Positions 1 through 46,298 of a stretch of DNA of 64,000 nucleotides are shown here, one piece after another (within the stretch, counting starts at the first letter, position 1; each line of letters opens with the position of its first letter). Both the position numbers and the translations under genes were made by a program. The notes beneath the pieces were generated by a model. It saw nothing but the letters and a program-made list of their open reading frames with translations, did not search any database and was not told the DNA's origin. The stretch is from Phyllobates terribilis (taxonomy: Eukaryota), in the NCBI RefSeq assembly GCF_046119375.1, contig NW_027362764.1, positions 520,118,001-520,182,000 on the forward strand, given 5' to 3'.

Positions 1-1163
1 GTAAAGTAAAGAGTTAAATAAACACACAGAGTAAAACACATTATTTGAAATACAACAGATGCATTCTTTAATCATTTAAATTAACCAATATACTCATCCC
101 TGGTCTGAAAGTAATCCAAGGGTTAAATCGATGTCCCATGTTTCTTTTTCTAAATATCTTTATTTAGCTCCAAAAACCATTCATTGATCTACAAAAATGC
201 ATCAAAAATGCATCAAAATCGCAGCAAAACGCGCTTTTTTTCTGCAGCGTTTTTCCTGCCTAGAGATTCAGAAACCTTAAGGAATTTTCTGCTATGCTTT
301 AGGTAACTGATTATGTCTTTGTCCCAGCCTATCTGGTTCTGACCCAGCTTGTTGACACCTCTTCCCTCAACTTGCTCTATAGGCCAGCAGCTACTCCACA
401 AGTACAGCACATAGGTCTCTGCAGTGAAGGCCATATCACTGTACGATGATGAGAGGGTGAATACCAGGGTGCCTCTGGGTCTTGTTGAGCAGAGTGGCTC
501 TCATCAAGTCTACACATGGTATCCTATTTAAGTTGACGTATTCATAACAAGTACTAACCATGGACATTTGAAATGTGTTAAACTTACTAGCCTAGTTAAT
601 TATAATTATTCAAATCTTGTATTTAAATGCTTTTAGATGTTAGTTAAATGTAATGTTGATTATAATAATGCAATATTATTATTGAGATAAATTGTAAGAA
701 CTAGAACGTTGAGTTATTGTTAAATGTGTTGTATTATTGTATCAGCTACTAAGAGTAAGCATAGAGACATCTTTTCAATTGAGTTCATAACTGTTCATAG
801 GAAACTTGGTGTCTAAATGTTATACTTCTTTATTGAATTAAACTGTAGCAATAAAGCTGATTGATCATTGCTATTCATTAAATTAGAAGTATCGCTTTTA
901 CAGGCCAGGGGTATAGCTTGTAGTATTAGATACATTTTGTGAATAATTATTTGCTGTACAAATATTGTCAATGCAACAAACTCTTTACATTTGTTTTACT
1001 AAAGAAATATCCCTTTCAATTGCTTTCCTTTTGGCTGCAATTATTGTGTAGTATTCAGGTGTAGCAGAGGTGAGTGCATAGTATAGGAATAGCAGAGCAG
1101 ATATACAGTAGGGTTTTGTTAAAAGACATGAGTCCAGAGGTACATGATACTGGATATGAGGTA

Positions 1164-2239
1164 TGTAACGGGTGTGGGAGGCGGAACCTCTGAGCAACTT
1201 ATACAAGGGGGCAGTCCTTGTAAGGAAGTGGGTGGCGACCAGGGAAGACAGGCAGGCGGTCACAGCAGGTGACCGGGACAGTCTCTGGGCAAACGGGCAG
1301 GAGGTCACGGCAAGTGACCGGGACAGTCTCTGGGTAAACGGGCAGGAGGTCCCAGCAAGTGACCGGGACAGTCTCTGGGTAAACAGGCAGGAGGTCACAG
1401 CAAGTGACCGGGACAGTCTCTGGGTAAACGGGCAGGAGGTCACGGCAAGTGACCGGGGCAGTCTCTGGGTAAACGGGCAGGAGGTCACGGCAAGTGACCG
1501 GGGCAGTCTCTGGGTAAATGGACAGGTACGACCTGTGACGGCTGAGCCTCCAGGTAGGCTAACAGGCAGGTAGCAGATGAGCGCTCCCAGGTGAGCGGGC
1601 AAGAGTCTCTGGACTGGCAGGTGGTCACAGCACGTGACGGCGGAGCCTCTAGGTAGACTAACAGGCAGGTAGCAGATGAGCGCTCCCAGGTGAGCGGGCA
1701 AGAGTCTCTGGACTGGCAGGTGGTCACAGCACGTGACGGCGGAGCCTCCAGGTAGGCTATCAGGCAGGTAGCAGGTGAGCGCTCCCAGGTGAGCGGGCAA
1801 GCTGGTCCATAGACAGACTGACAGGTGTCGGAAGGCAGACCGTCGGACCTCAGGCTAGCAAGCAGGAAAGCGGATGACAGGCAGGAATCAGGCAGCAAAC
1901 TGGCAGGAGACTGGCAGGTAACTGGCAGGTAACTGGCAACGGGACCTGAGGGCTGAAGCAGAGTAGTGAACAGTGCAACAACATTGCTCGGGCACCTCCA
2001 TTTTGGAGGAGGTGCCTTATATATGGAGGGATCCTCCGGCCATTGGCCGGGGACTCCTTAGGGCGACGCGCGTGGCCCCTTTAAGAGAGGGGGAGCGCGC
2101 GCGCGCGCGCGCCCTAAGCACAGTGACCGGGGGAGAGCGGGCGCTGCAGGCAGAGCGGGAGGAAGCCGCCGGGCACGGAGCAGAGAGGTGAGGGGAACAG
2201 CATCCCTGCCTAGCAGGAGGCAGGGACGCCGACGCTACA
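1164..2239 (-). repeat. 3' LTR of element 1164-7486
   Basis: TGTAACG...GCTACA termini. About 18 substitutions plus a (GC)n indel versus the other LTR. Contains ~6 copies of a 45-bp repeat and ~2.5 copies of a ~99-bp repeat. Confidence 0.95.
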
Positions 2240-5200
2240 GTACCCCCCCTTTAGGCCCCCCCTTTTTTAGGCCAGACAGAAATTTAGCAAGGATGAGAGA
2301 GGCATGGATGTTCTCCCGGGGCTCCCATGTTCTCTCCTCAGGACCAAACCCCTTCCAATCCACTAGAAAAAAGGTCTTTCCTCTTACCCTTTTGGTGGCC
2401 AGAATGTTCTCTACCTCAAACTCGTCTTCAGCAGAAACCGGAGCAGGAGGCGTACCTGTAGACTTGGAAAAGGAGTTAAGTACCACGGGTTTGAGAAGAG
2501 ATACATGGAAGGAGTTAGGGATCCGTAAGTTGGCCGATAGTTTCAATTTATAGGCCACCGGGTTGATCTGTTTGATAACCTCCAGTGGGCCGATGAACCG
2601 AGGCCCTAACTTATAGGAAGGAATCTTGAGCCGGACATATTTGGATGAGAGCCAGACTTTATCTCCGGGACGAAATTGTGGGGAATCCAGGCGTTTTTTG
2701 TCGGCGTGTCTCTTCATCCGCTCGGATGACTGAAGGAGTGCGGATCGGGTGCTCTCCCAAATGGAGGAAAATTTGCTAACGAGAGATTCCGCGGCCGGGT
2801 TGTCCACAGAGGTGGAGACAGGAAAAGGGATCCGAGGATGCTGACCGAAGACTACAAAAAACGGGGATTTAGAAGAAGATTCGCTCTCGTGATTGTTGTA
2901 AGAGAACTCGGCCCATGGTAGGAGATCCACCCAGTCTGAATGGTGGGCATTAACGAAGTGCCGGAGGTAACTGGTCAAATTCTGATTGATCCGCTCCACT
3001 TGACCATTGGACTGTGGGTGGTAAGCGGAGGAGAAGTCCAGGGTGATGTTGAGCAGTTTACATGTGGCTCTCCAGAAGCGTGAGGTGAACTGAACCCCAC
3101 GATCCGACACGATGTGGAGAGGCAGACCATGGAGACGGAAGATGTGGCGGATAAAGTCCTTAGCTAGCTCGGGAGCAGACGGGAGGCCTGGCAGGGGAAT
3201 AAAATGAGCCATTTTGGAAAAGCGGTCAGCGACCACCCAAATGACCGTACAACCGGCAGAGACGGGGAGATCTGTTATGAAGTCCATAGCTATATGTTGC
3301 CATGGGGCAGCAGGCACAGGCAGAGGAAGAAGGCGGCCGGCAGGCAGGTGTCTCGGAACTTTGTTGCGGGCGCAGGACACACAGGCAGAAACAAAGTCAA
3401 TTACATCCTTGTGCAGGGTAGGCCACCAGTAGTGCCGGGTAATAAGCTGGAGGGTCTTTTTCTGACCGGCGTGCCCAGCTAGCTTAGACGAGTGACCCCA
3501 GTGTAGAATCTGCTCCCGATCGGACTCCGTTACGAACGTCTTACCGGGAGGGAGACGATTTAGGCCCACGGGGGCTACCTGCATTACTCTGGCGGGATCG
3601 ATGATGTGTTTAGGCTCCTCCTCAAGATCAGACACCAGAAAGGATCGGGACAGGGCGTCAGCTTTGATGTTTTTGTCAGCCGGACGAAAATGAAGAATGA
3701 AATCAAAGCGGGCAAAAAACAAAGACCACCGGAGATATGCCAAGTTCTTGTGGTCAGTGTAAATTATTACCGGGTGGAGAGCCCCCTCGAGCAGGTAACG
3801 CCACTCCTCCAGTGCCATCTTAATGGCCAACAATTCTCGGTCTCCTATAGAATAATTGCGCTCAGAAGAGGAGAAAAGTTTGGAGAAAAAGCCGCAGGTT
3901 ACCTTTCTTCCGGAAGAAGATTTTTGGGTAAGTACCGCCCCAGCTCCGGAGGAGGATGCGTCAACTTCTAGGAAGAATTGTTTGTTGCCGTCCGGACGAT
4001 GCAGCACTGAGGCAGAGAGGAAGGCCTGTTTTAAGGAAAGAAATGCCTCCTCTGCTTTGGGCGGCCATTCTCTGGGGTTCGTACCTTTACGGGTGAGAGC
4101 AGAGATAGGGGCGGTCCGGGAAGAGAAGTGCGGTATGAACAGGCGGTAATAGTTGGCGAAGCCCAGGAACCGAATAGCCTTCAACCCCTCTGGTCGGGGC
4201 CACTTCTGGATGGCAGACAGTTTCTCAGGATCCATTTGTAGACCAGTCTGAGAGATTATGTAGCCCAGAAATGGAAGAGAGGTCTGTTCAAAGATGCACT
4301 TCTCATATTTAGCGTAGAGGTGGTTCTGCCTGAGCCTGAGCAGGACCTGAGGAACGTCCCTCCGGTGAGTAGGAAGATCCGGAGAGAAGACCAAGATATC
4401 GTCCAGGTACACCACCACGCAGGAGTAGAGAAGATCACGGAAGATGTCATTGACCAACTCTTGAAAGACGGCAGGAGCGTTACAGAGAACGAAGGGCATC
4501 ACAAGGTACTCATAGTGGCCGTCCCGGGTATTGAATGCCGTCTTCCACTCATCCCCCTGACGGATACGGACCAGGTTATATGCCCCACGGAGATCCAGTT
4601 TGGTGAAGATTCTAGCCCCCCTCAGACGGTCAAATAATTCAGGAATAAGCGGAAGGGGGTATTTATTCTTCACAGTAATCTGGTTTAGGCCTCTATAGTC
4701 TATACATGGACGGAGTGAGCCGTCCTTCTTTTTGACAAAGAAGAAGCCTGCTCCCGCCGGGGAGGTAGATTTCCGGGTAGATCCCCGGGCCAGGTTCTCC
4801 TCAATATATTCAGACATGGACCGGGTTTCAGCAGCGGACAAAGGGTAGATTCGCCCACGGGGAGGAGTAGAGCCGGGCATCAGGTCGATTGGGCAGTCGT
4901 ATGGTCTATGAGGAGGTAAAGTCTCTGCCTCTCTTTTATCGAAGACATCCGCATAAGACCAATAGGGAACCGGAAGACCGGGCAGATTGGCTGGGGTAGG
5001 AGAAGGACGGGCAGGATGAACGGGAACTAGACAAGTCTTATGGCAGTCCTGTCCCCAGCGAAGGACCTCTCCGGTCTGCCAGTCAAGCACGGGTGCATGT
5101 CTCTGGAGCCAAGGCAGGCCAAGCAATAGTGCGTGAGAGAGTCCAGGCAGAACATGAAAGGAGATGCTTTCGGAATGCAGCATTCCCACCTGTAGAGTCA

Positions 5201-5471
5201 GAGATTCGGTGATGAGTTGGATGGGATGTGGTAAGAGGCCCTCATCCACGGCGGCGACAGATATAGGTACGGCCAGAGGTTTGGTGGGAATGTGGTATTT
5301 TTCTACCAGGGATTGAGAGATGAGATTTCCAGCAGCTCCAGAGTCAAGTTGAGCCAGTTCAAAATAGCAGTTCTCTCCGCAGAGGATAGAAACAGACAGC
5401 ATCAGGGATGGAGAGGGTTTACTTTTGTCTAGGGCGACCTCTCTGAGCGATCCTAGACACAGGCGTTTCCC
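2235..5471 (-). CDS. pol: Pol polyprotein (protease, RT, RNase H, integrase, chromodomain), entered by -1 frameshift from gag
   Basis: Motifs LDSGA, YLDD, RNase H (DAS...E...TDH), integrase HHCC and D,D35E, C-terminal chromodomain FEVENIL...LVDWKGF...TWEP. The frame is open upstream from Met 5402 to the GGGAAAC site at 5471. Small in-frame deletions are present. Confidence 0.93.
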   Translation of the reverse strand, partial: GKRLCLGSLREVALDKSKPSPSLMLSVSILCGENCYFELAQLDSGAAGNLISQSLVEKYHIPTKPLAVPISVAAVDEGLLPHPIQLITESLTLQVGMLHSESISFHVLPGLSHALLLGLPWLQRHAPVLDWQTGEVLRWGQDCHKTCLVPVHPARPSPTPANLPGLPVPYWSYADVFDKREAETLPPHRPYDCPIDLMPGSTPPRGRIYPLSAAETRSMSEYIEENLARGSTRKSTSPAGAGFFFVKKKDGSLRPCIDYRGLNQITVKNKYPLPLIPELFDRLRGARIFTKLDLRGAYNLVRIRQGDEWKTAFNTRDGHYEYLVMPFVLCNAPAVFQELVNDIFRDLLYSCVVVYLDDILVFSPDLPTHRRDVPQVLLRLRQNHLYAKYEKCIFEQTSLPFLGYIISQTGLQMDPEKLSAIQKWPRPEGLKAIRFLGFANYYRLFIPHFSSRTAPISALTRKGTNPREWPPKAEEAFLSLKQAFLSASVLHRPDGNKQFFLEVDASSSGAGAVLTQKSSSGRKVTCGFFSKLFSSSERNYSIGDRELLAIKMALEEWRYLLEGALHPVIIYTDHKNLAYLRWSLFFARFDFILHFRPADKNIKADALSRSFLVSDLEEEPKHIIDPARVMQVAPVGLNRLPPGKTFVTESDREQILHWGHSSKLAGHAGQKKTLQLITRHYWWPTLHKDVIDFVSACVSCARNKVPRHLPAGRLLPLPVPAAPWQHIAMDFITDLPVSAGCTVIWVVADRFSKMAHFIPLPGLPSAPELAKDFIRHIFRLHGLPLHIVSDRGVQFTSRFWRATCKLLNITLDFSSAYHPQSNGQVERINQNLTSYLRHFVNAHHSDWVDLLPWAEFSYNNHESESSSKSPFFVVFGQHPRIPFPVSTSVDNPAAESLVSKFSSIWESTRSALLQSSERMKRHADKKRLDSPQFRPGDKVWLSSKYVRLKIPSYKLGPRFIGPLEVIKQINPVAYKLKLSANLRIPNSFHVSLLKPVVLNSFSKSTGTPPAPVSAEDEFEVENILATKRVRGKTFFLVDWKGFGPEERTWEPRENIHASLILAKFLSGLKKGGPKGGVL
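2240..2270 (-). other. Polypurine tract (PPT)
   Basis: Minus strand reads AAAAAAAGGGGGGGCCTAAAGGGGGGGTAC immediately before the 3' LTR TG. Confidence 0.85.
5421..5471 (-). promoter_or_regulatory. -1 ribosomal frameshift signal (GGGAAAC slippery site plus downstream stem-loop)
   Basis: Plus-strand GTTTCCC at 5465-5471. After a 5-nt spacer, an 8-bp stem TGTCTAGG/CCTAGACA follows. The -1 frame joins pol without a stop. Confidence 0.8.
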
Positions 5472-6403
5472 GACCTCTCAGGGCAGGAACGGATCCGGTG
5501 CTCCTTACTGCCACAGTAGAAACAGCTCCCCTCGGCACGACGTAAGTCTTGACGGGTCTTGACCATCTTGGTCTGGTCGACCTGCATAGGCTCAGGTGAG
5601 TGTGCCTGGGGAGTAACAGGGGGAGTGACGGGTCTCTGGAAGGTAGGGACTAGACGTGGAATCCTCCTCTCACGGGTGACCTCCCTAGCGCGCTCCTGGA
5701 ACCGGATGTCAATCCGGGTGGCAAGTGTAATCAAATCGTCGAGAGTGGTAGGAATGTCCCGATCGGCGAGTTCATCTTTAATACGGCCGGACAGACCCTC
5801 CCAGAAGACGGACACCAGGGCGTCGCTATCCCAGGCCAGCTCCGAAGCTAGGGTACGGAACCGTATGGCATATTGGCCCACGGTGAGACTCCCTTGACGG
5901 AGGCGTAGCAGAGATGAGGCGGATGAGGTCTTCCGTCCGGGTTCGTCGAAGACCTTCCGGAAAGCCGTGAGAAAGGCTGGCAGGTCGGACACCAAAGGGT
6001 CTCCTCTCTCCCATAGAGGATTTAGCCAAGCCAGTGCCTCTCCCGTGAGATGGGACATGATGAAAGCTACTTTGGCCCGGTCGGAATTAAACTGGTGGGA
6101 CTGGTGTTCAAAGTGCAGGGTGCACTGGTTAATGAAGCCCCGAGCTTGAGCGGAGTCGCCTCCGAAGCGAGGAGGTGCAGAAAGCCGGATTCCAGAGCAG
6201 GATACTATGGTATTGGTGGGCAGCGGAGCAGCCGGGCTGCGAGTCATGACACTAGCGGTGGTTGCTGGTGGGGCAGTCAAAGTGTCCAGGCGAGTATTGA
6301 CATTCCGCAGGTGACCCAGGATGGACTCCTGTTGGGATCTCTGTCGGGACAGTTCATGACAAAGGTCCGAGAGCGAGGGAGCTTGGGTGCCACCGGGTTC
6401 CAT
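5453..6403 (-). CDS. gag: Gag (sushi/PEG10-like capsid with CCHC zinc knuckle)
   Basis: 316-aa ORF with PPRFGGD...GFINQC...KVAFIMSHLTGEALAW and CFYCGSKEHRIRSC. Confidence 0.95.
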   Translation of the reverse strand: MEPGGTQAPSLSDLCHELSRQRSQQESILGHLRNVNTRLDTLTAPPATTASVMTRSPAAPLPTNTIVSCSGIRLSAPPRFGGDSAQARGFINQCTLHFEHQSHQFNSDRAKVAFIMSHLTGEALAWLNPLWERGDPLVSDLPAFLTAFRKVFDEPGRKTSSASSLLRLRQGSLTVGQYAIRFRTLASELAWDSDALVSVFWEGLSGRIKDELADRDIPTTLDDLITLATRIDIRFQERAREVTRERRIPRLVPTFQRPVTPPVTPQAHSPEPMQVDQTKMVKTRQDLRRAEGSCFYCGSKEHRIRSCPERSGNACV

Positions 6404-6404
6404 G

Positions 6405-6414
6405 GCCCGAGCAA
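6405..6414 (-). promoter_or_regulatory. Self-priming type primer binding site (not tRNA-complementary)
   Basis: TTGCTCGGGC starts 2 nt after the 5' LTR and is exactly complementary to GCCCGAGCAA inside the LTR (7237-7246), about 25 nt downstream of a TATA-like box. Confidence 0.8.
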
Positions 6415-6416
6415 AC

Positions 6417-7486
6417 TGTAACGGGTCTGGGAGGCGGAACCTCTGAGCAACTTATACAAGGGGGCAGTCCTTGTAAGGAAGCGGGTGGTGACCAGGGAAG
6501 ACAGGCAGGCGGTCACAGTAGGTGACCGGGACAGTCTCTGGGCAAACGGGCAGGAGGTCACGGCAAGTGACCGGGACAGTCTCTGGGTAAACGGGCAGGA
6601 GGTCCCAGCAAGTGACCGGGACAGTCTCTGGGTAAACGGGCAGGAGGTCACAGCAAGTGACCGGGACAGTCTCTGGGTAAACAGGCAGGAGGTCACGGCA
6701 AGTGACCGGGGCAGTCTCTGGGTAAACGGGCAGGAGGTCATGGCAAGTGACCGGGGCAGTCTCTGGGTAAACGGGCAGGTACGACCTGTGACAGCTGAGC
6801 CTCCAGGTAGGCTAACAGGCAGGTAGCAGATGAGCGCTCCCAGGTGAGCGGGCAAGAGTCTCTGGACTGGCAGGTGGTCACAGCACGTGATGGCGGAGCC
6901 TCTAGGTAGGCTAACAGGCAGGTAGCAGATGAGCGCTCCCAGGTGAGCGGGCAAGAGTCTCTGGACTGGCAGGTGGTCACAGCACGTGATGGCGGAGCCT
7001 CTAGGTAGGCTATCAGGCAGGTAGCAGGTGAGCGCTCCCAGGTGAGCGGGCAAGCTGGTCCATAGACAGACTGACAGGTGTCGGAAGGCAGACCGTCGGA
7101 CCTCAGGCTAGCAAGCAGGAAAGCTGATGACAGGCAGGAATCAGGCAGCAAACTGGCAGGAGACTGGCAGGTAACTGGCAGGTAACTGGCAACGGGACCT
7201 GAGGGCTGAAGCAGAGTAGTGAACAGTGCAACAACATTGCTCGGGCACCTCCATTTTGGAGGAGGTGCCTTATACATGGAGGGATCCTCCGGCCATTGGC
7301 CGGGGACTCCTTAGGGCGACGCGCGCGGCCCCTTTAAGAGAGGGGGAGCGCGCGCGCGCCCTAAGCACAGTGACCGGGGGAGAGCGGGCGCTGCAGGCAG
7401 AGCGGGAGGAAGCCGCCGGGCACGGAGCAGAGAGGTGAGGGGAACAGCGTCCCTGCCTAGCAGGAGGCAGGGACGCCGACGCTACA
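6417..7486 (-). repeat. 5' LTR of element 1164-7486
   Basis: Direct repeat of 1164-2239. TATA-like box around 7270-7277 on the minus strand. Confidence 0.95.
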
Positions 7487-17214: not shown

Positions 17215-18005
17215 CCCCTTCCTGACGCGGCCAATTTCATCAATACAATCTCGGCGATACTAAACATATTCAGTTTTTTTTTTTGCGATTTTAACTGTGA
17301 GAAAAAAAATCAGAAGTTTTAAAAAAATGTTTTTGGGTTGTACCACCATTTTCCAAGACCTGTAACATTTTTACTTTTGGGTCGTTGAAGCCGTGTGAAG
17401 GTTTATTTTTGTAAGGCAGGATAACGTTAATATCATGTTGGGATAGATATGACATTTTGATCGCTTGTTACAGCATTTTATGTGATATTACAGTGACCAA
17501 AAAAACTTTTTTTCTGTTTACGGTGTCTACAAATTGTGATATTTATTCTTATATTTTTATAGATTGGGCTTTTTTGAATGTGGCGATACCACATACGAAT
17601 GTGTATGTGTATTTTTTATATTATTTTTATTTTTGATGGGGGAAAAAGAAGGGCGATTTGAATTTTTATGCTTTTTTTTCACTTTGTTTTACTTTTCACT
17701 GTATTTATTATTATGAACCTGCGATTGTCTAATTGATTGTGCTATATATGCTGCATATAGCACAAGCAGAGTTTCAAGGGAACTCTGTAATGACAAGCAC
17801 TGAGGTCTTCAACAGACCCCCGGTTGTCCTAGCAACGTACCAGCGCCTTGCGATCACGTCATGAGTGCGGCGATGGACTCACAGAATGACGTGCCACCAT
17901 GCTGTAGCGTTGTTAACGCCACTGTCAGAGTTTGACAGCGCCGATCAACAGGCATAGTGCCACCCGCGGTTGTTAGAGGCAGGTCCTGGCTGTAACACAC
18001 AGTCA
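17215..18005. mobile_element. Truncated piggyBac-like non-autonomous element
   Basis: TTAA|CCCCTT start at 17211-17220. Internal similarity to the 41700-42900 part of the larger element. Right end missing. Confidence 0.6.
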
Positions 18006-18010
18006 TGCCT

Positions 18011-18053
18011 GGACCTGTAGAAGCGTGATAGACACGCGAAACGGCCGTCGTCC
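18011..18053 (+). ncRNA. Minimal type-I hammerhead ribozyme motif, degenerate (A6U)
   Basis: Stem I GGAC/GTCC, core CTGTAGA+A, stem II GCGTG/CACGC, GAAA, palindromic helix III CGGCCG, GTC cleavage triplet. AATAAA about 35 nt downstream. Confidence 0.75.
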
Positions 18054-19574
18054 GCAAAAGGCGCCGCTTCCCTGCATTTTTAATGGAAATGGAATAAAAG
18101 AAGATTTTATTACATCGGTGTGCCATCTCGCTTTCTTCATGTATGAATTGTGACTACATCAGTAATAATTAATTGGGGTGTATGGTATATATTCATATTT
18201 ACATCCCATTATATTACAACCACAATTTTGAATTGTATAATGTTTAACATATATTCCACTATATGTAACTTTAAATCCTAGTTACTTTAATTGTTGCTAT
18301 ATATCCTTCATATCCCAGTATATTTTGTCATTCCCTTAAATCGTGTCTGGCACCTTTTTAAGCTGATCCGTGTTTTTTATGTGGTTTTAACTTCATCTTG
18401 TTCTATCTAGTCCTCACCTGTTGTTCTGGTCGGTTTCCTTGTGTTTCGTGGTGGAGTTCTCTGTGTTGGTCGTTGTTTGGCTGTATCCTTGGGGTGATCT
18501 CGGCAGACCTTTGTAAAAAAGGAAAAGAAAAATATAAGAAGAAAAGACTGGAGCCTTTACTTGAAATTGGATCAACAAACAGCATAAATTCAAACTGTGG
18601 ACTTTCCAAAAAAAAGAAAAAATATGTATGTGTGTAGTAATGATATAACCAGTTGTATTTGGAGTAACTATATGTGTCTTATTACATTATTATTATGTAC
18701 TACACCAACTATTTATATTTTGTATCACTTTTACATGTCACTGTAAAACATAGTATGTATATGAATTTAATTATTTTTATTACTTTCGCAACATTATTTT
18801 ACACATGTCACTTGATACACGTTTCAGCATATTATTATATCATATATATAAATTTTTTTTTTTTTTTCCATGTATATCACACACCATTTTTATTTTTTCA
18901 CACTTATGTTTTACATGTCACCATATAGCTCATCATTTACATAGTTTTAATTATCCCTTCCACTACCTTATTATACACATTTTACACTATTTATACATGT
19001 TATTATTTTGCACTTCACTTATAATGTTTTTTTATTACTATGACTCCTATAGCACTATCTGCACATGTCACTGTATCTTTACTTCATTATATTATATTCT
19101 GTTTTTTCATCATTCACATTACAAAATTACATTCAATAATTTTTAATCACCTTTATATTTCATACTTTACACAATAATGGACATTAATTTGTTTATATCA
19201 CTTTATAATTCATATAGAGTATTTTACATTTATATTATATATGTGTCATAAATGGCATCTGTTGCAATTAATTCATTTATATATTTATATTGTATAATTG
19301 ATGTCATTTAATATGCAGCGCACTTTTTACATAAGTGCACTTTTATATAGTGCACTTTTGCTACTTTGATATTTTCACTGTTATTTAATATATTCATATC
19401 ATTACTCTATAGCTATCATGATCACATTGTCACATTTGGATTTAATCACTGGTAAAGCTGTTATCGCACCATGTTTGATGGGGTTCAAATCATACACGAT
19501 GGGAAATGCAACGTTTATCCACTCACAGGCGCAATCCAAGCTTCGCTACTCCTATATGGGGAATTCATCACGGA

Positions 19575-19775
19575 GAGTGCGCATGAGCATGAGCGGACCC
19601 GTGGGACTTCCGGTCTTGCGCACCATACACAGCGTGCGTTCCACCGCATGCGTGTCAGGCGCCATATTCCGGAAGTCCTGTTACATACACGGGATTCCCA
19701 GTAATGCGGTCATGCGCCAAAATCACTCCGACATTGATGATTATTGAAATTAGCTGGTGGGGGACTTATAAAAAC
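19575..19775 (+). promoter_or_regulatory. Putative PLE promoter (CpG-rich, TATA)
   Basis: GC-rich island with GCGCATG, CCGGAAGT/ACTTCCGG and GCCAT motifs, and TATAAAA at 19767-19773 about 25 nt before the ribozyme. Repeated at ~24720-24920. Confidence 0.6.
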
Positions 19776-19798
19776 GGAAGGCTGCGCACATAGTACAC

Positions 19799-19842
19799 GC
19801 CCCTATTGAAGAAGCACATTAGCGAAACGGCGTCGTCGGGGC
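19799..19842 (+). ncRNA. Minimal type-I hammerhead ribozyme, variant core
   Basis: GCCCC-TA-TTGAAGA-AGC-acatta-GC-GAAA-CGGCGTC-GTC-GGGGC. Helix III is self-complementary. Confidence 0.8.
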
Positions 19843-19893
19843 AGGCTCTTCTAAGGAGACCTCCAGATACACAGTGCTATCAATAATCCCTTT

Positions 19894-20439
19894 GTAAGTA
19901 TAATGGCCGGCTCAATTTGGATACTACTATAGGCATCTAATACTTAGGTCCCAATTACACTATATTTACTTGAACTACTTTGGCACTTTATAATATGAAT
20001 ATATTCTCTAATTATTTTGGTACTTGATATTTATCTATGATACTTGGCTTTGTATTCTATATACTGTGCACAATAGTAATTAAGAGCATTTTTGTGGGAA
20101 TAGTGCAATTTATTCTGATGTCCTAGTTTATATGGGCCTGGAGTCATATCAAAATTCTTGCAGGTATATTAATTAGGGATAATATTATATGTGACTGAAT
20201 TGATTTGGAGGGGTCTCCTTTAATGTTTTTAGTTTTCTGCTTTTACTTATCTTTTATTGTATTTTCATGAATTATATTCTTAAATTGCTGAAATAAAAGA
20301 ATGATTTTATTAGATTTTGTTGTATATCTTCCTTAAACCAGGTTTATAACTGTGGTTTGTGTGTGTAAAGATTCTATGGCGGAGGAATATTTATTGACCT
20401 TTTTTGATATAAACTAATTGTGTACTGTTTTTTGAACAG
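19894..20439 (+). other. Spliceosomal intron in the PLE 5' leader
   Basis: GTAAGT donor, ACTAAT branch point (20413-20418), T-tract and ACAG acceptor 18 nt before the ATG at 20458. Confidence 0.7.
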
Positions 20440-20457
20440 ATGGTCTAACAATTTAAA

Positions 20458-23400
20458 ATGGATTTCAAAGCCAGGGAGACAGCCTGGAGATCCAAAGCTT
20501 CCGATATGTTTAAGCAGGGCCTTTCAGGTGCTGTACAGGATCCTATAAAGGAAAACAGGGATTTAATGATGCAATACAAAATTGAAGTTCAGAAGAAATT
20601 AAGGGTATGGTGGAATAAGACAACATCAGAAAATTATTGTGAACAGAAAATCATCCCTAGGGGATTGCGAGTTCAGGTCTATCCATCCTTTGATCTGGAG
20701 GACATAGATCTTATTAATAGGTGGAAAAATGCCGCTAGTACTTGCTCATTGGAGTTTCTAAAAATAATTATTGAGAAAAATACTATTTCTCTCAATAAAA
20801 TTGATAAAAAAATCGAAGATTTACATAACGATTTGAGAAAGGAGCTCCATTCTGATAGACTTGATAGTTATCTCAAAATTGTGGAAAATGACATTGACAA
20901 GTGGGAAAATGAGATCAGTAAGATCAAGCAAAAGAAATATATACGGGATTTGCATGACTATGAGAATAATAAAATCTTTAAGTGGCAACTACCTAAACGT
21001 AAGATTCAGAATCAATTGAATACCACAAAGCCCTCAGTTGCTGAACCATCTGGTTCAGAAACCAGTACCTCATGTAGTGAGACTGAAGAAATTGCCGAGC
21101 AGATGAGACCTAACACAAGATTACAACAAAGAAAATACCCCTGAGATATTCTCGAAAGGTCTGGCAGGAAACAGGATGATAGATTGAAGGTAATAAACTT
21201 ATCAAACGTGACACTAACAACAACACAGATAAGAGTCTTGGAAAATGGTCTAACATTTTCTCCATCCTCATATTTAGATCAATTCACGGTGGTGAAAGAT
21301 CTCCACCTTTTTGCTAGGAAATTGGTCTTACAAAAGCTTCATTTTAAGTCAGATTTGGATTTACTTTTTCCTACCGAACTGGAAAAGAGGGCCCTTAAAG
21401 ATCTTGAAGATCTAGAGAAAGAAAGTGTACAGAGTACCAGAGGTAGGTTTCCTATGCATCTGGTCCAAAAATCAAAAATCTTTCCCCCACTCTCGACATG
21501 TTTGGCGGTAGATGTCTTTACTAAAATGGTGACTACCGAGATTGAATCACTTCCACGTGCCTCTAGGAGTAGATTTAATCTAAGTCCCGAAGAAAAATTG
21601 GCCCTTGAGGATCTGAAAAAATTACCAAATGTGATCATAAAACCAGCCGATAAAGGTGGGAATTTGGTAATTTGGCCACAAAACCTCTATGAGAAACAAG
21701 CCAATAAAATTCTGGACTTTCCAGGTTGTTACCAAAGACTTACGTACAATCCATTGACCCAATTTCAGTCTCAATTAGTTGCAATCCTTGAAAAAGCATT
21801 TGATGCAGATTTAATTCCCAAGAAATTGGTCGACTTGATTAAAAAATTACGACCAAGATTGTCTACCTTCTATTTACTACCAAAGTTGCATAAGGATCAG
21901 ATGGACCCCCCCGGGAGGCCCATTATCTCTGGTAATGGTAGTCTCTGTGAGAATATTTGTGTCATTATTGATTTTTTTCTACAGCCCTTGGTCCATACTT
22001 TACCATCATATATTAAAGACTCTACTGAAGCCTTGAAAAGAATGGACTCAGTACATTTAGAGACAGGATCTATGATGGTAACTGTTGATGTTGAGGCACT
22101 TTATTCATCAATTAGATATCAAGACGGATTGAAGGCAGTGTCTTTGTTCTTATATGAGAGTAATATTGAGCAATCTATGTCGACATTAATTGTGACTTTA
22201 CTTGAATTTGTTCTAGAACACAATGCCTTTATTTTCAACAAGAAAATGTATTTGCAGAAACAAGGCACCGCAATGGGGGCTTCTTGTGCCCCCTCATATG
22301 CAAATTTATTTTTGGGGGCGTGGGAGAGGTATCTTTTTCAGGGCGATGTCATCGATGACATCCACCTCGTACAGGGGTGGATGAGATTCATCGATGACAT
22401 CTGGTTCATCTGGGAAGGTACTGATGTGCAATTGAAGAGATTTATGGAGCAATTGAGTAACAACGCCTTGAATATTAAATTGACATTTCAATATGGGCGA
22501 GAAGTTAATTTTTTGGACTTACATATCTGGACCACTGATAGTGGATATATCATGACGGATATATATAGAAAGAACACCGCCACTAATACTATACTCCATA
22601 ATACTTCCTCCCATCCACCATCCACCATTAGGGGCATTCCTGTTGGCCAATTTTTGAAGCTAAGACGGATCTGTACAAACAATGAATCTTTTCAATGTCA
22701 ATCACGGGACCTTGTAAGGCGCTTTCAGGACCGTGGATATAGTAAAAGGAATATAATGGCTGGCTTTAAGAGAGCAGTGAACACTGATCGGCAACAACTA
22801 TTATATGGCAATAAGAATATCAGGGAAGATAAATCAGGAATTGTCAGATTTATATCAGACTATAACGTGCAGTGGCCGGAGCTTGGGACGATACTGAGGA
22901 AACATTGGGGAGTCTTGTTAACTGACCCCATATTACAGAAAATTTTACCGCCAAAACCAGTCATGGTTGCAAGACGTTCGAGGAATCTGAAAGATTCCTT
23001 GGTACACAGCCATTATGAAAAAGATTCATTTGTGCGAAAGGTGGATGGCAACAAGATTGGCTTTTTTGTATGTGGAAAATGCAAAGCATGTAAAAATATG
23101 ACCAACAGTAAGGAATTCAGGAATCACGATAATAGTCGAACATATGAGATCAGAAAGTCCTTATCATGTAGTTCAAAGGGTGTTATTTATTATGCGGAAT
23201 GTCCGTGTAAGAAAATATATATTGGGCTTACAACACGAGAATTAAGGATAAGGACTAGGGAGCATATTCTAGATATAGAGAAATCAATGTCCATGGAGGA
23301 AATAACTGGATTGAGAACTCTCCCTAGACATTTCAAGCTCCATGATAACAGTGACCCTAGAGGCCTTACAATAAAAAGCATTGACCAGATTGATATGGGG

Positions 23401-23520
23401 ATTAGAGGCGGTGATCTGAGCCAAGCTCTAGCGAGACTGGAGAGTAAATGGATATTCAGACTGGGCACTATATCCCCTCAAGGCCTGAATGAACAATTCG
23501 GCTTCGCTGCCTTTTTGTGA
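20458..23520 (+). pseudogene. PLE polyprotein (N-terminal domain, RT, Zn-finger, GIY-YIG endonuclease) interrupted by one in-frame TGA at 21142-21144
   Basis: The two track ORFs are in the same frame, 39 nt apart. Motifs IPRGLR...W...CS, KPADKG, PGRPIIS, GTAMG, FIDD, CGKCKAC, VIYYAECPCKKIYIGLT. Confidence 0.9.
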
Positions 23521-25561
23521 CTACATCAGTAATAATTAATTGGGGTGTATGGTATATATTCATATTTACATCCCATTATATTACAACCACAATTTTGAAT
23601 TGTATAATGTTTAACATATATTCCACTATATGTAACTTTAAATCCCAGTTACTTTAATTGTTGCTATATATCCTTCATATTCTAGTATATTTTGTCATTC
23701 CCTTAAATCGTGTCTGGCACCTTTTTAAGCTGATCCGTGTTTTTTATGTGGTTTTAACTTCATCTTGTTCTATCTAGTCCTCACCTGTTGTTCTGGTCGG
23801 TTTCCTTGTGTTTCGTGGTGGAGTTCTCTGTGTTGGTCGTTGTTTGGCTGTATCCTTGGGGTGATCTCGGCAGACCTTTGTAAAAAAGGAAAAGAAAAAT
23901 ATAAGAAGAAAAGACTGGAGCCTTTACTTGAAATTGGATCAACAAACAGCATAAATTCAAACTGTGGACTTTCCAAAAAAAAGAAAAAATATGTATGTGT
24001 GTAGTAATGATATAACCAGTTGTATTTGGAGTAACTATATGTGTCTTATTACATTATTATTATGTACTACACCAACTATTTATATTTTGTATCACTTTTA
24101 CATGTCACTGTAAAACATAGTATGTATATGAATTTAATTATTTTTATTACTTTCGCAACATTATTTTACACATGTCACTTGATACACGTTTCAGCATATT
24201 ATTATATCATATATATAAATTTTTTACTTCATTATATTATATTCTGTTTTTTCATCATTCACATTACAAAATTACATTCAATAATTTTTAATCACCTTTA
24301 TATTTCATACTTTACACAATAATGGATATTAATTTGTTTATATCACTTTATAATTCATATAGAGTATTTTACATTTATATTATATATGTGTCATAAATGG
24401 CATCTGTTGCAATTAATTCATTTATATATTTATATTGTATAATTGATGTCATTTAATATGCAGCGCACTTTTTACATAAGTGCACTTTTATATAGTGCAC
24501 TTTTGCTACTTTGATATTTTCACTGTTATTTAATATATTCATATCATTACTCTATAGCTATCATGATCACATTGTCACATTTGGATTTAATCACTGGTAA
24601 AGCTGTCATCGCACCATGTTTGATGGGGTTCAAATCATACACGATGGGAAATGCAACGTTTATGCACTCACAGGCGCAATCCAAGCTTCGCTACTCCTAT
24701 ATGGGGAATTCATCACGGAGAGTGCGCATGAGCACGAGCGGACCTGTGGGACTTCCGGTCTTGCGCACTATACACAGCGTGCGTTCCACCGCATGCGTGT
24801 CAGGCGCCATATTCCGGAAGTCCTGTTACATACACGGGATTCCCAGTAATGCGGTCATGCGCCAAAATCACTCCGACATTGATGATTATTGAAATTAGCT
24901 GGTGGGGGACTTATAAAAACGGAAGGCTGCGCACATAGTACACGCCCCTATTGAAGAAGCACATTAGCGAAACGGCGTCGTCGGGGCAGGCTCTTCTAAG
25001 GAGACCTCCAGATACACAGTGCTATCAATAATCCCTTTGTAAGTATAATGGCCGGCTCAATTTGGATACTACTATAGGCATCTAATACTTAGGTCCCAAT
25101 TACACTATATTTACTTGAACTACTTTGGCACTTTATAATATGAATATATTCTCTAATTATTTTGGTACTTGATATTTATCTATGATGCTTGACTTTGTAT
25201 TCTATATACTGTGCACAATATTAATTAAGAGCATTTTTTGTGGGAATAGTGCAATTTGTTCTGATGTCCTAGTTTATATGGGCCTGGAGTCATATCAAAA
25301 TTCTTGCAGGTATATTAATTAGGGATAATATTATATGTGACTGAATTGATTTGGAGGGGTCTCCTTTAATGTTTTTAGGTTTCTGCTTTTACTTATCTTT
25401 TATTGTATTTTAATGAATTATATTCTTAAATTGGTGAAATAAAAGAATGATTTTATTAGATTTTGTTGTATATCTTCCTTAAACCAGGTTTATAACTGTG
25501 GTTTGTGTGTGTAAAGATTCTATGGCGGAGGAATATTTATTGACCTTTTTTGATATAAACT
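23515..25561 (+). repeat. Downstream pseudo-LTR of the PLE
   Basis: Direct repeat of 18148-20416. Begins within the ORF stop region and ends at the intron branch point. Confidence 0.93.
24944..24987 (+). ncRNA. Second copy of the variant hammerhead ribozyme
   Basis: Identical to 19799-19842. Confidence 0.8.
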
Positions 25562-26698
25562 ATGTATGAATTGTGACTTACTTTGTTTCTGGAGGGAGTT
25601 GCACCCGATGGTAAGATTCATTGCTCCAGCTGATGAGGTCGAGCTTCTGGAGTCTCTGCAAAAGGACTGAGTCGCTGCAGTGCTAGTTGCCTGTGCATTT
25701 GAATTTAAACTTTGTATAAATCAACAGTTCAATCAATATTATGCACTTTGTATGATATCCTATCAAAAGAAATATGTTTTTTTCTGCACTTATAAACCAT
25801 TTTCCTGCCCCTGCAGCCCAAACTCATCATTCACTCTAAAAAAAAATCCAGCTCACTGAGGAGTCAGATTACAGCTGGCAATTCAAGTCTATAAACAGGG
25901 AGATGAAGGGGCAGAAAGGTAGATTGACAAATCCTTTTGCTGCTTTATAGAAAGTGTTTTAACTCATCCCAGTGCAAATACACTGCTCAGTACTGCTGTA
26001 TAAGTTTAACATGCTAGTGATGCTTCAGCTGGGTTACATAGAAACTATGTAACAGGAATCTCATAAGTATCTGTGTCCTGTGTATGGTAGACATCATAGC
26101 ACCTAGACACCGCCAACCAGCTCAACTGATGTATGGTAGACATACATGGTAGACATCACAGCACCAAGCCACCGCCAACTAGCTTAGAGACAACTGATTA
26201 TTGGAGATAGGACCTGCATTGGGTTAAAATTGGTGAGAATTGCAGGATAGTAATGGTGTTATTTTTCATGTAAATATAAAACAGCTTATTCTGAAAAAAC
26301 ACCTGTAATGACAGGTACACTGGAAGTAAAATTAGGATTTAACATAAAATGTAATGATATTTATCAAATAAATAAAATGTTTGTTTTTCAATGCCATAAT
26401 ATGATAGACACTTGCATTCTAACAGTCACAGACAATTTTGTTCAGCATAATTGACTTTCAGATTTAAAAAATTGCCTGTAAGTCAATAATGTGCTAGTGC
26501 ACATGAGCAATTCACAGCATGTGAATGAGAGACTGCCAGATAAGCGCATATAGCTGCACATGGATGTTGTCCACATTTTGCGCACATGACTGGCCCAATG
26601 TTTGACACAAAGCATTTTTTACACACATTTTTTCCAATGCATTTTTACGTGAGCAGAACAAAAACTCTGCGTCTGTACGACTCTATAGTTAAATATAA

Positions 26699-33459: not shown

Positions 33460-34578
33460 CAAGTTTACATACCCCGGCAGAATTTTTCCTTTCTTGGCCT
33501 TGTTTCAGAGAATATGAATGATAACAAAAAAACTTTTTCTCCACTCATGGTTATTGGTTGGGTGAAGACATTTATTGTCAAACTACTGTGTTTTCTCTTT
33601 TTAAATCTTAATGACAACCAAAAACATCCTAATGACCCTGATCAAAATTCACATACCCTGGTGATTTTGGCCTGATAACATGCACAAAATTTGACACAAA
33701 TGGGTTTGAATGGCTACTAAAGGTAACATCCTCACCTGTGACCTGTTTGCTTGTAATCAGTGTGTGTGCATAAAAGCTGAGTGAGTTTCTGGGATCCAGA
33801 CAGACTCTTGCATCTCTCTGGAACTTTTTGGCCACAACCATAAACGTTACATTTGGAGAGAGGTCAACAAGGCCTATAATGAAAGGAACACCATTCCTAC
33901 AGTAAAGCACGGAGGTGGATCACTGATGTTTTGGGATGTGTGAACTACAAAGGCACAGGAAACTTGGTAAAAGTTGAAGGAAAGATGAATGCAGCAAATA
34001 CTGGAGGCAAATTTGCACTCATCGGCCCGGAAGCTGTGCATGGGACGTAATTGGACATTCCAACATGACAACGATCCAAAACACAAGGCCAAGTCGACCT
34101 GTAGTTGGCTACAGCAGAACAAAGTGAAGGTTCTGGAGTGGCCATCTCAGTCTCCTGACCTCAATATCATTGAGCCGCTCTGGGGAGCTCTCAAGTGCGC
34201 AGTTCATGCTAGACAGCCCAGGAATTTACGGGAACTGGAGGCTTTTTGCCAAGAAGAATGGGCAGCTTTACCATCTGAGAAACTAAAGAACCTCATCTAT
34301 AACTACCACAAAAGACTTCAAGCTGTCATTGATGTTAGAGGGGGGCAATACACGGTATTAAGGACTGGGGTATGTGAACTTTTGATGAGGGTCATTTGGA
34401 TGTTTTTGGTTGTCATAAGATTTGAAAAGAGAAAACACAGTAGTTTAGTAATAAATGTCTTCACCCAACCAATAACCATGAGTGGAGAAAAAGTTTTTTT
34501 GTTATCAAACATATTCTCTGAAACAAGGCCAGAAAGGAAAAAGTCAGCCGAGATATGTAAACGTTTGAGCACATACTG
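33460..34578 (+). mobile_element. Internally deleted Tc1-like element (DD34E remnant)
   Basis: ~200-bp TIRs with AAGTTTACATAC, TA flanks. Only the C-terminal half of the transposase remains (QHDNDPKH...[12 protein letters not shown]). Confidence 0.88.
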
Positions 34579-35017
34579 TATTTCGGGGCTATGTGTGGGC
34601 TCATACTGTATATGGGCAGCTATGTGTGGGTTCATACTCTATATAGGAGGCTATGTGGAGGCTCATACTGTATATAAGCAGTTATATGCGGGCTCATACT
34701 GTATATAGGAGGCTATGTAGGGACTCATACTGTATCTAGGCAGCTATGTGTGGGTTCATACTGTATATAGGAGGCTATGTGGAGGCTCATACTGTATATA
34801 GGCAGTTATGTGTGGGCTCATACTGTTTATAGGAGGCTATGTGGGGGCTCATACTGAATATAGGCAGTTATGTGTGGGCTCATACTGTATATAGGAGGCT
34901 ATATGGGGGCTCATACTTTATATAAAAGACTATATGGTGGCTCATACTGTATTTACGGAGCCATGTGCAGGCTCATACTGTATCTAGTAGGCTATATGGG
35001 GGCTCATACTGTATATA

Positions 35018-36644
35018 CAGTACAGACCAAAAGTTTGGACACACCTTCTCATTTAAAGATTTTTCTGTATTTTCATGACTATGAAAATTGTACATTCACA
35101 CTGAAGGCATCAAAACTATGAATTAACGCATGTGGAATTATATACTTAACAAAAAAGTGTGAAACAACTGAAAATATGTCTTATATTCTAGGTTCTTCAA
35201 AGTAGCCACCTTTTGCTTTGATGACTGCTTTGCACACTCTTGGCATTCTCTTGATGAGCTTCAAGAGGTAGTCACCAGAAATGGTTTTCACTTCACAGGT
35301 GTGCCCTGTCAGGTTTAATAAGTGGGATTTCTTGCCTTACAAATGGGATTGGGACCATCAGTTGTGTTGTGCAGAAGTCTGGTGGATACACAGCTGATAG
35401 TCCTACAGAATAGACTGTTAGCTGCTTTTTTCTTGCCATAATACAAATTCTAAGTAAAGAAAAATGAGTGGCCATCATTACTTTAAGAAATGAAGGTCAG
35501 TCAGTGCGAAAAATTGGGAAAACATTGAAAGTGTCCCCAAGTGCAGTTGCAAAAACCATCAAACGCTGCAAAGAAACTGGCTCACATGAGGACCGCCCCA
35601 GGAAAGGAAGACCAAGAGTCACCTCTGCTTCTGAGGATAAGTTTATCCAAGTCAACAGCCTCAGAAATCGCAGGTTAACAGCAGCTCAGATTAGAGACCA
35701 GGTCAATGCCACACAGAGTTCTAGCAGCAGACACATTTCTTCAACAACTGTTAAGAGGAGACTTTGTGCAGCAGGCCTTCATGGTAAAATAGCTGCTAGG
35801 AAACCACTGCTAAGGACAGGCAATAAGCAGAAGAGACTTGTTTGGGCTATAGAACACAAGGAATGGACATTAGACCAGTGGAAATCTGTGCTTTGGTCTG
35901 ATGAGTCCAAATTTGAGATCTTTGGTTCCAACCACCGTGTCTTTATGCGACGCAGAAAAGGTGAACGGATGGACTCTACATGCCTGGTTCCCACTGTGAA
36001 GCATGGAGGAGGAGGTGTGATGGTGTGAGGGTGCTTTGCTGGTGACACTGTTGGGGATTTATTCAAAATTGAAAGCATACTGAACCAGCATGGCTACCAC
36101 AGCGTCTTGCAGCAGCATGCTATTCCATCCGGTTTGCGTTTAGTTGAACCATCATTTATTTTTCAACAGGACAATGACCCCAAACACACCTCCAGGCTGT
36201 GTAAGGGCTATTTAACCAAGGAGGGGAGTGATGAGGTGTTACGCTAGATGACCTGGCCTCCACAGTCACCAGACCTGAACCCAATCCAGATGGTTTGGGG
36301 TGAGCTGGACCGCAGAGTGAAGGCAAAAGGGCCAACAAGTGCTAAGCATCTCTGGGAACTCCTTCAAGATTGTTGGAAGACCATTTCCGTTGATTACCTC
36401 TTGAAGCTCATCGAGAGAATGCCAAGAGTGTGCAAAGCAGTCAAAGCAAAAGGTGGCTACTTTGAAGAACCTAGAATATAAGACATATTTTCAGTTGTTT
36501 CACACTTTTTTGTTAAGTATATAATTCCACATGTGTTAATTCATAGTTTTGATGCCTTCAGTGTGAATGTACAATTTTCATAGTCATGAAAATACAGAAA
36601 AATCTTTAAATGAGAAGGTGTGTCCAAACTTTTGGTCTGTACTG
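35018..36644 (+). mobile_element. Full-length Tc1-like element, DD38E (Intruder-type) spacing, inactivated
   Basis: TA-flanked CAGTACAGACCAAAAGTTTGGACAC TIRs of ~200 bp. Transposase has stops at ~36026 and ~36245. 38 residues lie between the second D and the catalytic E position, which is Q here. Confidence 0.9.
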
Positions 36645-36737
36645 TAGGTATCTGTGTGTGGGCTCATACTGTATATAGGAGGCTATGTGGGGGCTCATAC
36701 TGTATATAGGAAGCCATATGTGGGCTCACACTATATA

Positions 36738-38373
<1,636 letters not shown>

Positions 38374-39289
38374 TATATAGGGGGCTATGTGGGGGCTCAT
38401 ACTGTATGTAGGGGCTATGTGGGGGCTCATACTGTATATAGGCAGCTATATGCAGACTCATACTGTATATAGGAGGCTATATGTGGGCTCAAACTTTATA
38501 TTGGAGGCTATATGGGGATAATACTGTATATAGGAGGCTATATATATGGGGCTCATATGGTATATAGGAGGCCATGTTGGGGCTCATACTGTATCTAGGG
38601 AGCCATGTGCAGGCTCATACTGTTTCTAGGATGCTATATGGGGGCTCATACTGTATATAGGCAGCTATGTGCAGGTTGATACTGTATATAGGAGGCTATG
38701 TGGAGGCTGATACTATATATAGACAGTTATATGCGGGCTCATACTGTATATAGGCAGCTATGTGTGGGTTCATACTGTATATAGGAGGCTATATGGGGGC
38801 TCATACTTTATATAAAAGGCTATATGATTGCTCATATTGTACCTAGGGAGCCATGTGCAGGCTCATACTGTATCTAGAAGGCTATATGGGGGCTCATACT
38901 GTATATAGGGAGCTATGTGCGGGCTCATACTGTATATAGGAGGCTATGTGGGTGTTCATACTGTGTATAGGCAGCTATGTGTGGGCTCCTTCTGTATATA
39001 GGAGGCTACGTGGGGGCTCATACTGTATATAGGGAGCCATATGCGGGCTTACACTGTATATAGGGAGCTATGTGGGGGCTCATACTGTATGTAGGGGCTA
39101 GGTGTGGGCTCATACTGCACATAGGAGGATGTCAGGACACTTAATTGTAATCATCAACATTAACAGAAATAAACACTTGAAATAGAACACTCTGTAATGA
39201 CTCTATATAATATGAGTTTCACTTTTTGTATTGAAGAACTGAAATAAATTAACTTTTTGATGATATTCTAATTTAGTGAGAAGCACTTG

Positions 39290-45397: not shown

Positions 45398-46298
45398 TGT
45401 TTTCTAATTTGACTTTGGATTTTTTTTTTAAAAATTAGTTTATTGTTCTGGCTATGCTGTTTGTTATTAGAACATGGCGACGAAAAAATAGATTTTTATT
45501 AAAAAGTAATTTCTTTTTTTGCAAAAGTGGCAAAACATGAAAAAAGCTGTGTAGATTTTGTATTGTCACAATCATATCAACCCCCATAATGAAGATAACA
45601 TGTCAATTATCCTGAAAGATGAGCGGTGTTTAAAAAAAAAAAAGTTTGGAATTGTACATTTTTGTTCATTTTGCCCCTTAAAGATTGTAATTATAAGTGA
45701 TCAAAAACTTGTACAGTATGTACCACACCACACCACCATCTAGGCAATCATGCTGGGTGCATTTTTTGGACAGCTGATTGCAGCACTCTGTAAGGGGTGT
45801 TCTTTTGTGGCCCCTTATTTTCTTTTCCTGTCGAAACCTGTACAAGTGAGAGGGGAAACGCGTCAGGAGATTGATGAGTATACCTATTAATTATTACATG
45901 TAAAACTGACATTTTTGATATACATGTTAATATATACCACTGGGTGGAAGACTATATGACCATTTTAGTTTATATATATATAATAATGTCCACCTATTGA
46001 TTCGTTGTGGCATGTATCTGATGCAATTTTTTTTCAAATTTAGGACTGATTTAGGGATTACCAAGGTCAGTCGACATTGAATGGGGGCACCATTGTCGCA
46101 TTATCTTTAGCTTACCAACCCTTGTGGTCAGACAGGTGACTGAAATAGGTCATATTAGAGTCTAGTGGTATTTTCCTGACTAATTTTTCCTTTTATATCA
46201 TCTATTCCATTGGCCTATTTTATTAGGTCCTTTTTCATGCATATCTAATAAATTTTGTTCTTAGGAGGTTTTTTGACAGTAAGACATTTTTCAATATA

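Follow-up and report, generated by a model that had tools for sequence, protein, structure and literature searches.

A Penelope-like element in the window

The window, the whole stretch of 64,000 nucleotides analyzed here, carries at 18148–25561 an EN+ Penelope-like element (PLE) arranged as two pseudo-LTRs (pLTRs) flanking an ORF. Sequence comparison delimits the upstream pLTR (18148–20415) and the downstream pLTR (23515–25561), both on the plus strand; the latter is without an equivalent of 18856–19077, and in pairwise comparison the two differ at 16 aligned positions plus one 222-nt deletion. The insertion is bounded by a 17-nt target-site duplication (18139–18155 on the left and 25562–25578 on the right, plus strand) and is likely recent, since the empty site is present in X2, one of three sequence runs (X1–X3) used in this study. 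Its target (17960–18140) is another abundant repeat with its own hammerhead-like motif (~18015–18065). Elsewhere in the window, two Gypsy-type LTR elements and several Tc1-type transposons, labeled by reading translations and repeats, lie at 985–7310, 53742–58521, 33484–38380 and 46294–47936, some of them inside a 31-nt minisatellite.

The plus-strand ORF (20458–23520) encodes a reverse transcriptase (RT) and a GIY-YIG-type endonuclease (EN), and its best protein matches come from frogs. The Pfam RVT_1 profile matches at E=6.5e-5, weaker than the curated cut-off, and the endonuclease was read off the translation as GVIY..YIG with two Cys in between; PF01541 is carried by some homologs, with no Pfam GIY-YIG match in the window's own copy. 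The Pfam search also returned no match for the N-terminal part of the ORF or for two stop-free pLTR frames. An in-frame TGA (21142–21144) is specific to this copy, lies amid small indels and is absent from two of the three other copies examined; relatives with an open 1020-aa ORF exist. Selenocysteine insertion or read-through at this TGA was rejected because other copies have small indels there. The CGKCKAC linker in the translation agrees with the CX2-5CxxC pattern between RT and EN that defines Neptune in the accessible part of the bioRxiv text, where Nematis also has this linker and Neptune is not monophyletic. By this Cys-rich linker, the element would be of Neptune type.

A predicted sense-strand 5'-UTR intron (19894–20439, plus strand, GTAAGT … CAG) contains both fixed right insertion ends of the family: among 30 promoter loci, 26 end on the sense 3' side at 20366–20373 or 20409–20426, and the remaining four continue into the ORF. 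Upstream of this intron, at 19806–19845 on the plus strand, is a minimal motif that we take to be hammerhead-like from its core boxes. These boxes are kept across copies; Rfam gives no match to the motif, with five chance matches only in the scan, and the monomer fold is not diagnostic. The accessible descriptions of EN+ Neptune-type PLEs share with this element the partial tandem pLTR–ORF–pLTR layout, an RT with a C-terminal GIY-YIG-type domain, the Cys-rich linker, a hammerhead-like motif, a 5'-UTR intron, two fixed ends ~45 nt apart and head-to-head arms (bioRxiv 2021.04.23.441226, PMC4209133, PMC11167929, PMC3846280). The introns described in these sources are on the sense strand, whereas the element in the window adds an antisense exon.

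Anatomy of the antisense exon

The exon lies on the minus strand of the upstream pLTR (18508–18418) and is 91 nt long, with 5% T and 77% A+C. It is preceded by an acceptor region (18545–18509) comprising a branch-point-like YTNAY, a pyrimidine tract and an AG at 18510–18509, and is followed by a donor, CAG/GTGAGG (exon/intron; 18417–18412), hereafter donor 2. A second copy occupies 23785–23875 of the downstream pLTR, also on the minus strand. Upstream in the antisense direction, a candidate exon 1 (19568–19521, minus strand) begins with an ATG at 19568, followed by 14 codons and a GTGAGT donor at 19526–19521 (donor 1), which is weak at 6.2 bits. Rechecked on the sequence, all coordinates of the initial annotation agree, including those of the tract, AG, exon and CAG/GTGAGG; its description of a GC-balanced exon in AT-rich surroundings likewise holds (~51% GC versus 20–30% GC), and its spliced frame of 44 codons and 47-aa read-through peptide are both present. 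It had omitted a further in-frame ATG upstream, at 19649. The in-frame join that it described is there but carries no weight, as the exon is stop-free in all three frames, and the same signals recur in the downstream pLTR but are not independent, the two pLTRs being nearly identical.

When splice sites on both strands of the window were scored with untrained matrices, the exon and its downstream copy were the top two acceptor–donor pairs with a spacing of 60–160 nt, at 22.7 bits, a score reached by 0 of 100 dinucleotide shuffles. As judged from the sequence, the 91-nt minus-strand exon appears to be real. The next strong minus-strand acceptor beyond it is at 17294.

Conservation and origin of the antisense exon

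Close searches recovered three subfamilies at about 96–100, 78 and 70% identity. In these, the sequence of donor 2 is GTGAGG or GTAAGG, variation in the branch-like pentamer is limited to its free position, and the acceptor is shifted by 2 nt, with the CAG lying 2 nt further upstream in subfamily B and most copies of subfamily C. We then surveyed 44 3' regions, made up of 40 varied regions out of 150 endonuclease matches and four close-subfamily rows. A strong antisense donor is found, mostly at a distance of 160–310 nt past the stop codon; a pyrimidine tract with its AG precedes this donor by 84–131 nt, and the homologous exons thus delimited (84–131 nt) are A/C-rich and T-poor. An antisense exon was recovered at p≤0.02 against 100 shuffles in 32 of the 44 regions and in 12 of 15 clusters formed at 70% identity. 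In L018, counted among the 32, the proper donor is mutated and the test is passed by way of a different, weak donor; among the three failing clusters, one has a weak CAG/GTACT donor.

The columns of donor 2 were compared in 21 representatives, hand-picked as one per cluster with a recognizable homologous donor and thus overstating conservation relative to the 44-row survey: A at −2 (21/21), G at −1 (20/21), a purine at +3 (21/21), A at +4 (20/21) and G at +5 (20/21). With C or A at −3 and a variable +6, these yield the clade consensus MAG/GTRAG, a pattern of variation like that of a 5' splice site. Antisense-strand U1 sites show a weak excess (60 observed versus 47 expected). Poly(A)-like hexamers lie 12–30 nt past donor 2 in many families, so the antisense RNA may often terminate just past this donor. 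A TTAAAAYCA motif is conserved at 18375–18400 of the window (minus strand) and in L142–L181, often with AATAAA or ATTAAA 12–30 nt past donor 2; this pattern suggests a composite internal/terminal exon.

In a quick tree of 22 rows, which covers families of this genome only, the exon-bearing families form one clade (SH-aLRT 100%) with 73–91% protein identity to the window copy. Among more distant families (42–58% protein identity), the exon test was passed by two of 47 rows, three of the 50 loci having been set aside because the match stopped short of the C-terminus. Confined mostly to one clade and kept there despite flanking divergence, the antisense exon had a single origin and was retained while its flanks diverged.

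A sense-strand acceptor overlapping donor 2

Donor 2 overlaps a sense acceptor-like signal (18380–18410, plus strand) that the initial annotation does not mention, consisting of TTTTAAY, a U-rich tract and YNYAG, with its AG (18409–18410) seven bases from the donor. In the 21 hand-picked representatives, the AG is in place in 19, pyrimidines occupy −3 and −5 in all 21, −4 is free, and the TTTTAAY box lies upstream. Of 13 distant rows, 12 have a similar acceptor, preceded in some of them by a donor at a distance of 60–70 nt (a count made without a shuffle control); within the exon-bearing clade, we found no conserved nearby sense donor for it. The sense acceptor appears to be older than the antisense exon, and the antisense donor may have evolved on top of it. 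Because it is both older and about as well conserved, part of the constraint at the site is not antisense. In L209, L211, L213, L218 and L228, a 3'-UTR sense acceptor lies just past the stop codon and is kept down to ~46% protein identity; in L211, L213, L218 and L228, a candidate mini-intron of 62–73 nt ends at it, with no matching donor in the exon-bearing clade.

Junction evidence from a sister family

In L202, a single unit from a sister family with 73% protein identity, contigs in X1 and X2 run from 3467 back to 3360 (contig depth, 7.15 in X1 and 18.1 in X2); X1–X3 are unstranded contigs from one study whose RNA label is guessed, and the letters between the two sides of the junction are not known. 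These ends are exactly the acceptor and donor of the 108-nt exon predicted beforehand for L202, and the X1 junction contig measures 138 nt, i.e., 108 + 30, which is what a closed loop of 108 nt would give. Intron sequence flanks the exon on both sides in each of the 26 genomic matches to the L202 family, and the exon–exon junction occurs in none of them. A GT..AG joint inside the L202 ORF, found in X1 and X3, suggests that the runs are RNA. Both splice ends of the sister family's exon are probably used in RNA. For the window's own family, no splice joint was found in the three contig sets over 17800–23514, where cover is very thin, and no joint between exon 1 and exon 2 appeared in the contigs on the window family, with the same very thin cover, or in those on L202.

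Two further features of the L202 contigs were recorded. A related transcript in X1–X3 skips 327 and 609 nt of the ORF on the sense strand (L202:1061–1389 and L202:1500–2110); both skips are multiples of three, the 609-nt one with GT..AG borders in X1 and X3, and the transcript possibly represents an exonized or domesticated copy. In addition, L202:4516–5051 is matched by one contig, at depth 65–100 in X1 and X2, in which the repeat starts just past the hammerhead-like motif and has foreign flanks; it is a short insertion within well-covered sequence.

A probable bidirectional promoter as the likely source

A CpG-rich promoter core with a sense TATA (19767) occupies 19530–19800 (CpG observed/expected, 1.14 versus 0.44). 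It contains motifs that we take to be two of ETS/GABP type (19606, 19669), NRF1-like (19579, 19711), YY1-like (19661) and ZNF143-like (19695). This set of motifs is enriched in vertebrate bidirectional promoters, as reported in the accessible text of PMC3082894. The idea that the promoter is bidirectional, put forward in the initial annotation, is thus supported by motif content, and transcription of the antisense exon likely starts from this pLTR promoter, which belongs to the element itself. In L172 and L174, a conserved block that closely follows the promoter core in the antisense direction is tandemly duplicated, in units of ~65 and 94 nt.

Splicing partner and alternative explanations

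Across 15 ORFs, antisense acceptors number 208 versus 198 from synonymous shuffles, i.e., without excess. Given this and the tandem arrangement of units, the natural partner of the antisense donor is the next copy of the same exon. The initial annotation had suggested that the downstream copy could make RNA antisense to the RT-EN ORF; as a mature product this is probably not the case, for the ORF lacks an acceptor excess and the joint seen in RNA connects the exon to the same exon. A third antisense exon in the anti-ORF at 23436 (6/15 versus 0.6) was considered and not accepted, as several families have lost the site, which coincides with conserved residues, L-E-S-K/R-W, of the protein.

The reading that we favor by a modest degree is that a clade-conserved antisense exon splices to its tandem copy or circularizes, and that the anti-ORF stretch is discarded, limiting double-stranded RNA. 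Under this reading, the bidirectional pLTR promoter would produce a non-coding antisense RNA, and the donor of the exon would join the corresponding exon in the tandem unit immediately upstream, or the exon would back-splice into a small circle. In the window, the donor at 23785 would join the acceptor at 18508, skipping ~5.3 kb including the whole anti-ORF, so that RNA complementary to the RT-endonuclease gene would likely be discarded as an intron. Loss of this 3–5 kb anti-ORF stretch would presumably serve to limit how much double-stranded RNA forms with the message and template of the element itself. A back-spliced circle and a tandem exon joint fit the L202 contig equally well. We infer the antisense start site, exon 1, the linear or circular form of the product, and its purpose. 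A more far-reaching formulation, which we advance tentatively, is that a dedicated exon yields a circular or concatemeric RNA of ~100-nt units, that the same dozen bases act as a splice site on both strands, and that unspliced sense RNA is copied with priming inside the intron. The last point follows if spliced introns are present on both strands and kept in every copy examined, in which case unspliced sense RNA must be copied.

The same anatomy and junction would be expected if a stable, TART-like non-coding RNA paired with the 3' UTR, fed small-RNA silencing and thereby restrained the element, an explanation that we consider unlikely. In the accessible text of PMC1636488, the antisense RNAs of TART undergo splicing, do not code for protein and are suggested to act as inhibitors, and in L202 the ORF has a lower summed contig depth than the 3' UTR and promoter, a measure that cannot rank expression. 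Most of the complementary sequence would, however, be spliced out, and selection for self-silencing would be harder to explain in a dispersed selfish element than in telomeric ones.

There is also a small chance that the antisense promoter serves for reading in: in head-to-head insertions, the inverted arm's promoter would read inward, and donor 2 would splice to a sense acceptor (the 18411 or 20440 equivalent), giving a full-length template or mRNA. Head-to-head pairs are frequent, the sense acceptor is conserved in the exon-bearing clade with no conserved donor nearby, and PLEs would have to regenerate the sequence upstream of the sense start. Yet the contigs on the window family or on L202 contain no opposite-strand joint at these sites, and among window-family and sister-family matches none has an inverted exon fused at the acceptor.

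Equally improbable, in our estimate, is that selection acts on sense signals (the older acceptor, GU-rich and A-rich tracts, or a U1-like mask) and that antisense splicing is incidental. The overlap of the older acceptor with donor 2 would fit this, as would sister families that have only a weak G/GTA at the place of donor 2, but a sense acceptor leaves unconstrained both the ten bases of MAG/GTRAG and the pyrimidine tract with its AG 84–131 nt away. The variant in which a U1 mimic masks the element's own sense donor was rejected, as only 0–2 of the three exon-side positions match in 16/16 testable rows.

Coding potential

The initial annotation interpreted the locus as an ORF0-like unit in which exons 1 and 2 encode a basic peptide that the phase-1 donor fuses to host exons. 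We regard this as very improbable. The frame is open in the window copy, and of 24 representatives, 17 have no stop in the phase-1 frame, where base shuffles predict 8.7; the other two frames are nevertheless also above expectation (12/24 and 14/24), and this scarcity of stops in all three frames, greatest in phase 1, does not appear to be a coding signal. Of 36 close alignments, 13 have the ATG, and in the wider set it is found in 17 of 37 rows, with an offset that varies between 4 and 8; exon lengths fall into all three classes modulo 3, with indels of 1, 2 and 8 nt that break the frame, and substitution rates are flat across codon positions (0.147, 0.172 and 0.173). Aligning family copies, a check proposed in the initial annotation, therefore gives a divided outcome: the splice signals of exon 2 beat shuffles, but neither the start codon nor the frame is conserved and there is no codon bias. 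Donor 1 is at the window position in 4 of 37 rows, all of the A/B lineage, and elsewhere the site is a GGGCGTG box. The antisense exon is very likely non-coding. Its export into flanking DNA by the upstream copy is possible; no outward joint to host exons was seen in the contigs compared with the window family, where cover is thin, or with L202.

Relation to known systems

No antisense exon in a PLE was described in the literature searched, a scope that excluded most subscription papers and all supplements, and the earlier statement that PLEs have no known equivalent of L1 ORF0 agrees with that search. The Terminon study reportedly includes antisense ORFs. The word antisense does not occur in PMC2377424 (by term search) or in the accessible parts of PMC4209133 and two bioRxiv texts. 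Primate L1 ORF0 resembles the present case in its antisense transcription from the promoter region and in donors able to splice outward, but ORF0 is protein-coding, whereas the PLE exon is without a conserved ATG or frame and lies in the 3'-UTR part of the pseudo-LTR (PMC10760644, accessible text).

By analogy, the closest precedent appears to be the spliced non-coding antisense RNA of TART and HeT-A. The accessible texts describe spliced antisense transcripts of these Drosophila telomeric elements (PMC1636488, PMC5537684), which arise from the terminal repeats of tandem retrotransposons, are non-coding, do not serve as the transposition template, and have introns that keep their spacing within divergent non-coding sequence. 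In the PLE clade, too, antisense splice sites are kept across divergent subfamilies. In contrast to the PLE, TART and HeT-A are non-LTR telomeric elements of an unrelated class, and the PLE has a single internal exon, joined to itself or to a tandem copy, that overlaps a sense acceptor.

Implications for PLE copying and intron retention

It is puzzling that PLEs retain introns despite being copied through RNA. According to one published proposal, an antisense template hides these introns: the accessible text of PMC3846280 hypothesizes that the pLTR promoter is bidirectional and that the template is antisense, leaving direct demonstration to future work. Among 15, 27 and 26 matches, of which the best candidates were scored, we found no intron-less (processed) copy, and for an anole PLE, in vitro copying of a sense RNA template starts at internal sites (PMC11167929, accessible text). 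Together with the fixed insertion ends inside the sense intron, these observations make it likely that the antisense RNA is not the copying template. With introns on both strands and none lost from genomic copies, the antisense-template account of Penelope intron retention is weakened; if the antisense splice sites are functional and the intron is present in every genomic copy, that idea cannot explain the exon-bearing clade. Within the literature searched, the junction described here is the first junction-level hint, with exact sites, of antisense transcription from a PLE pseudo-LTR, and a strong, ready-made exon would come with every copy that inserts into a host intron in antisense orientation.
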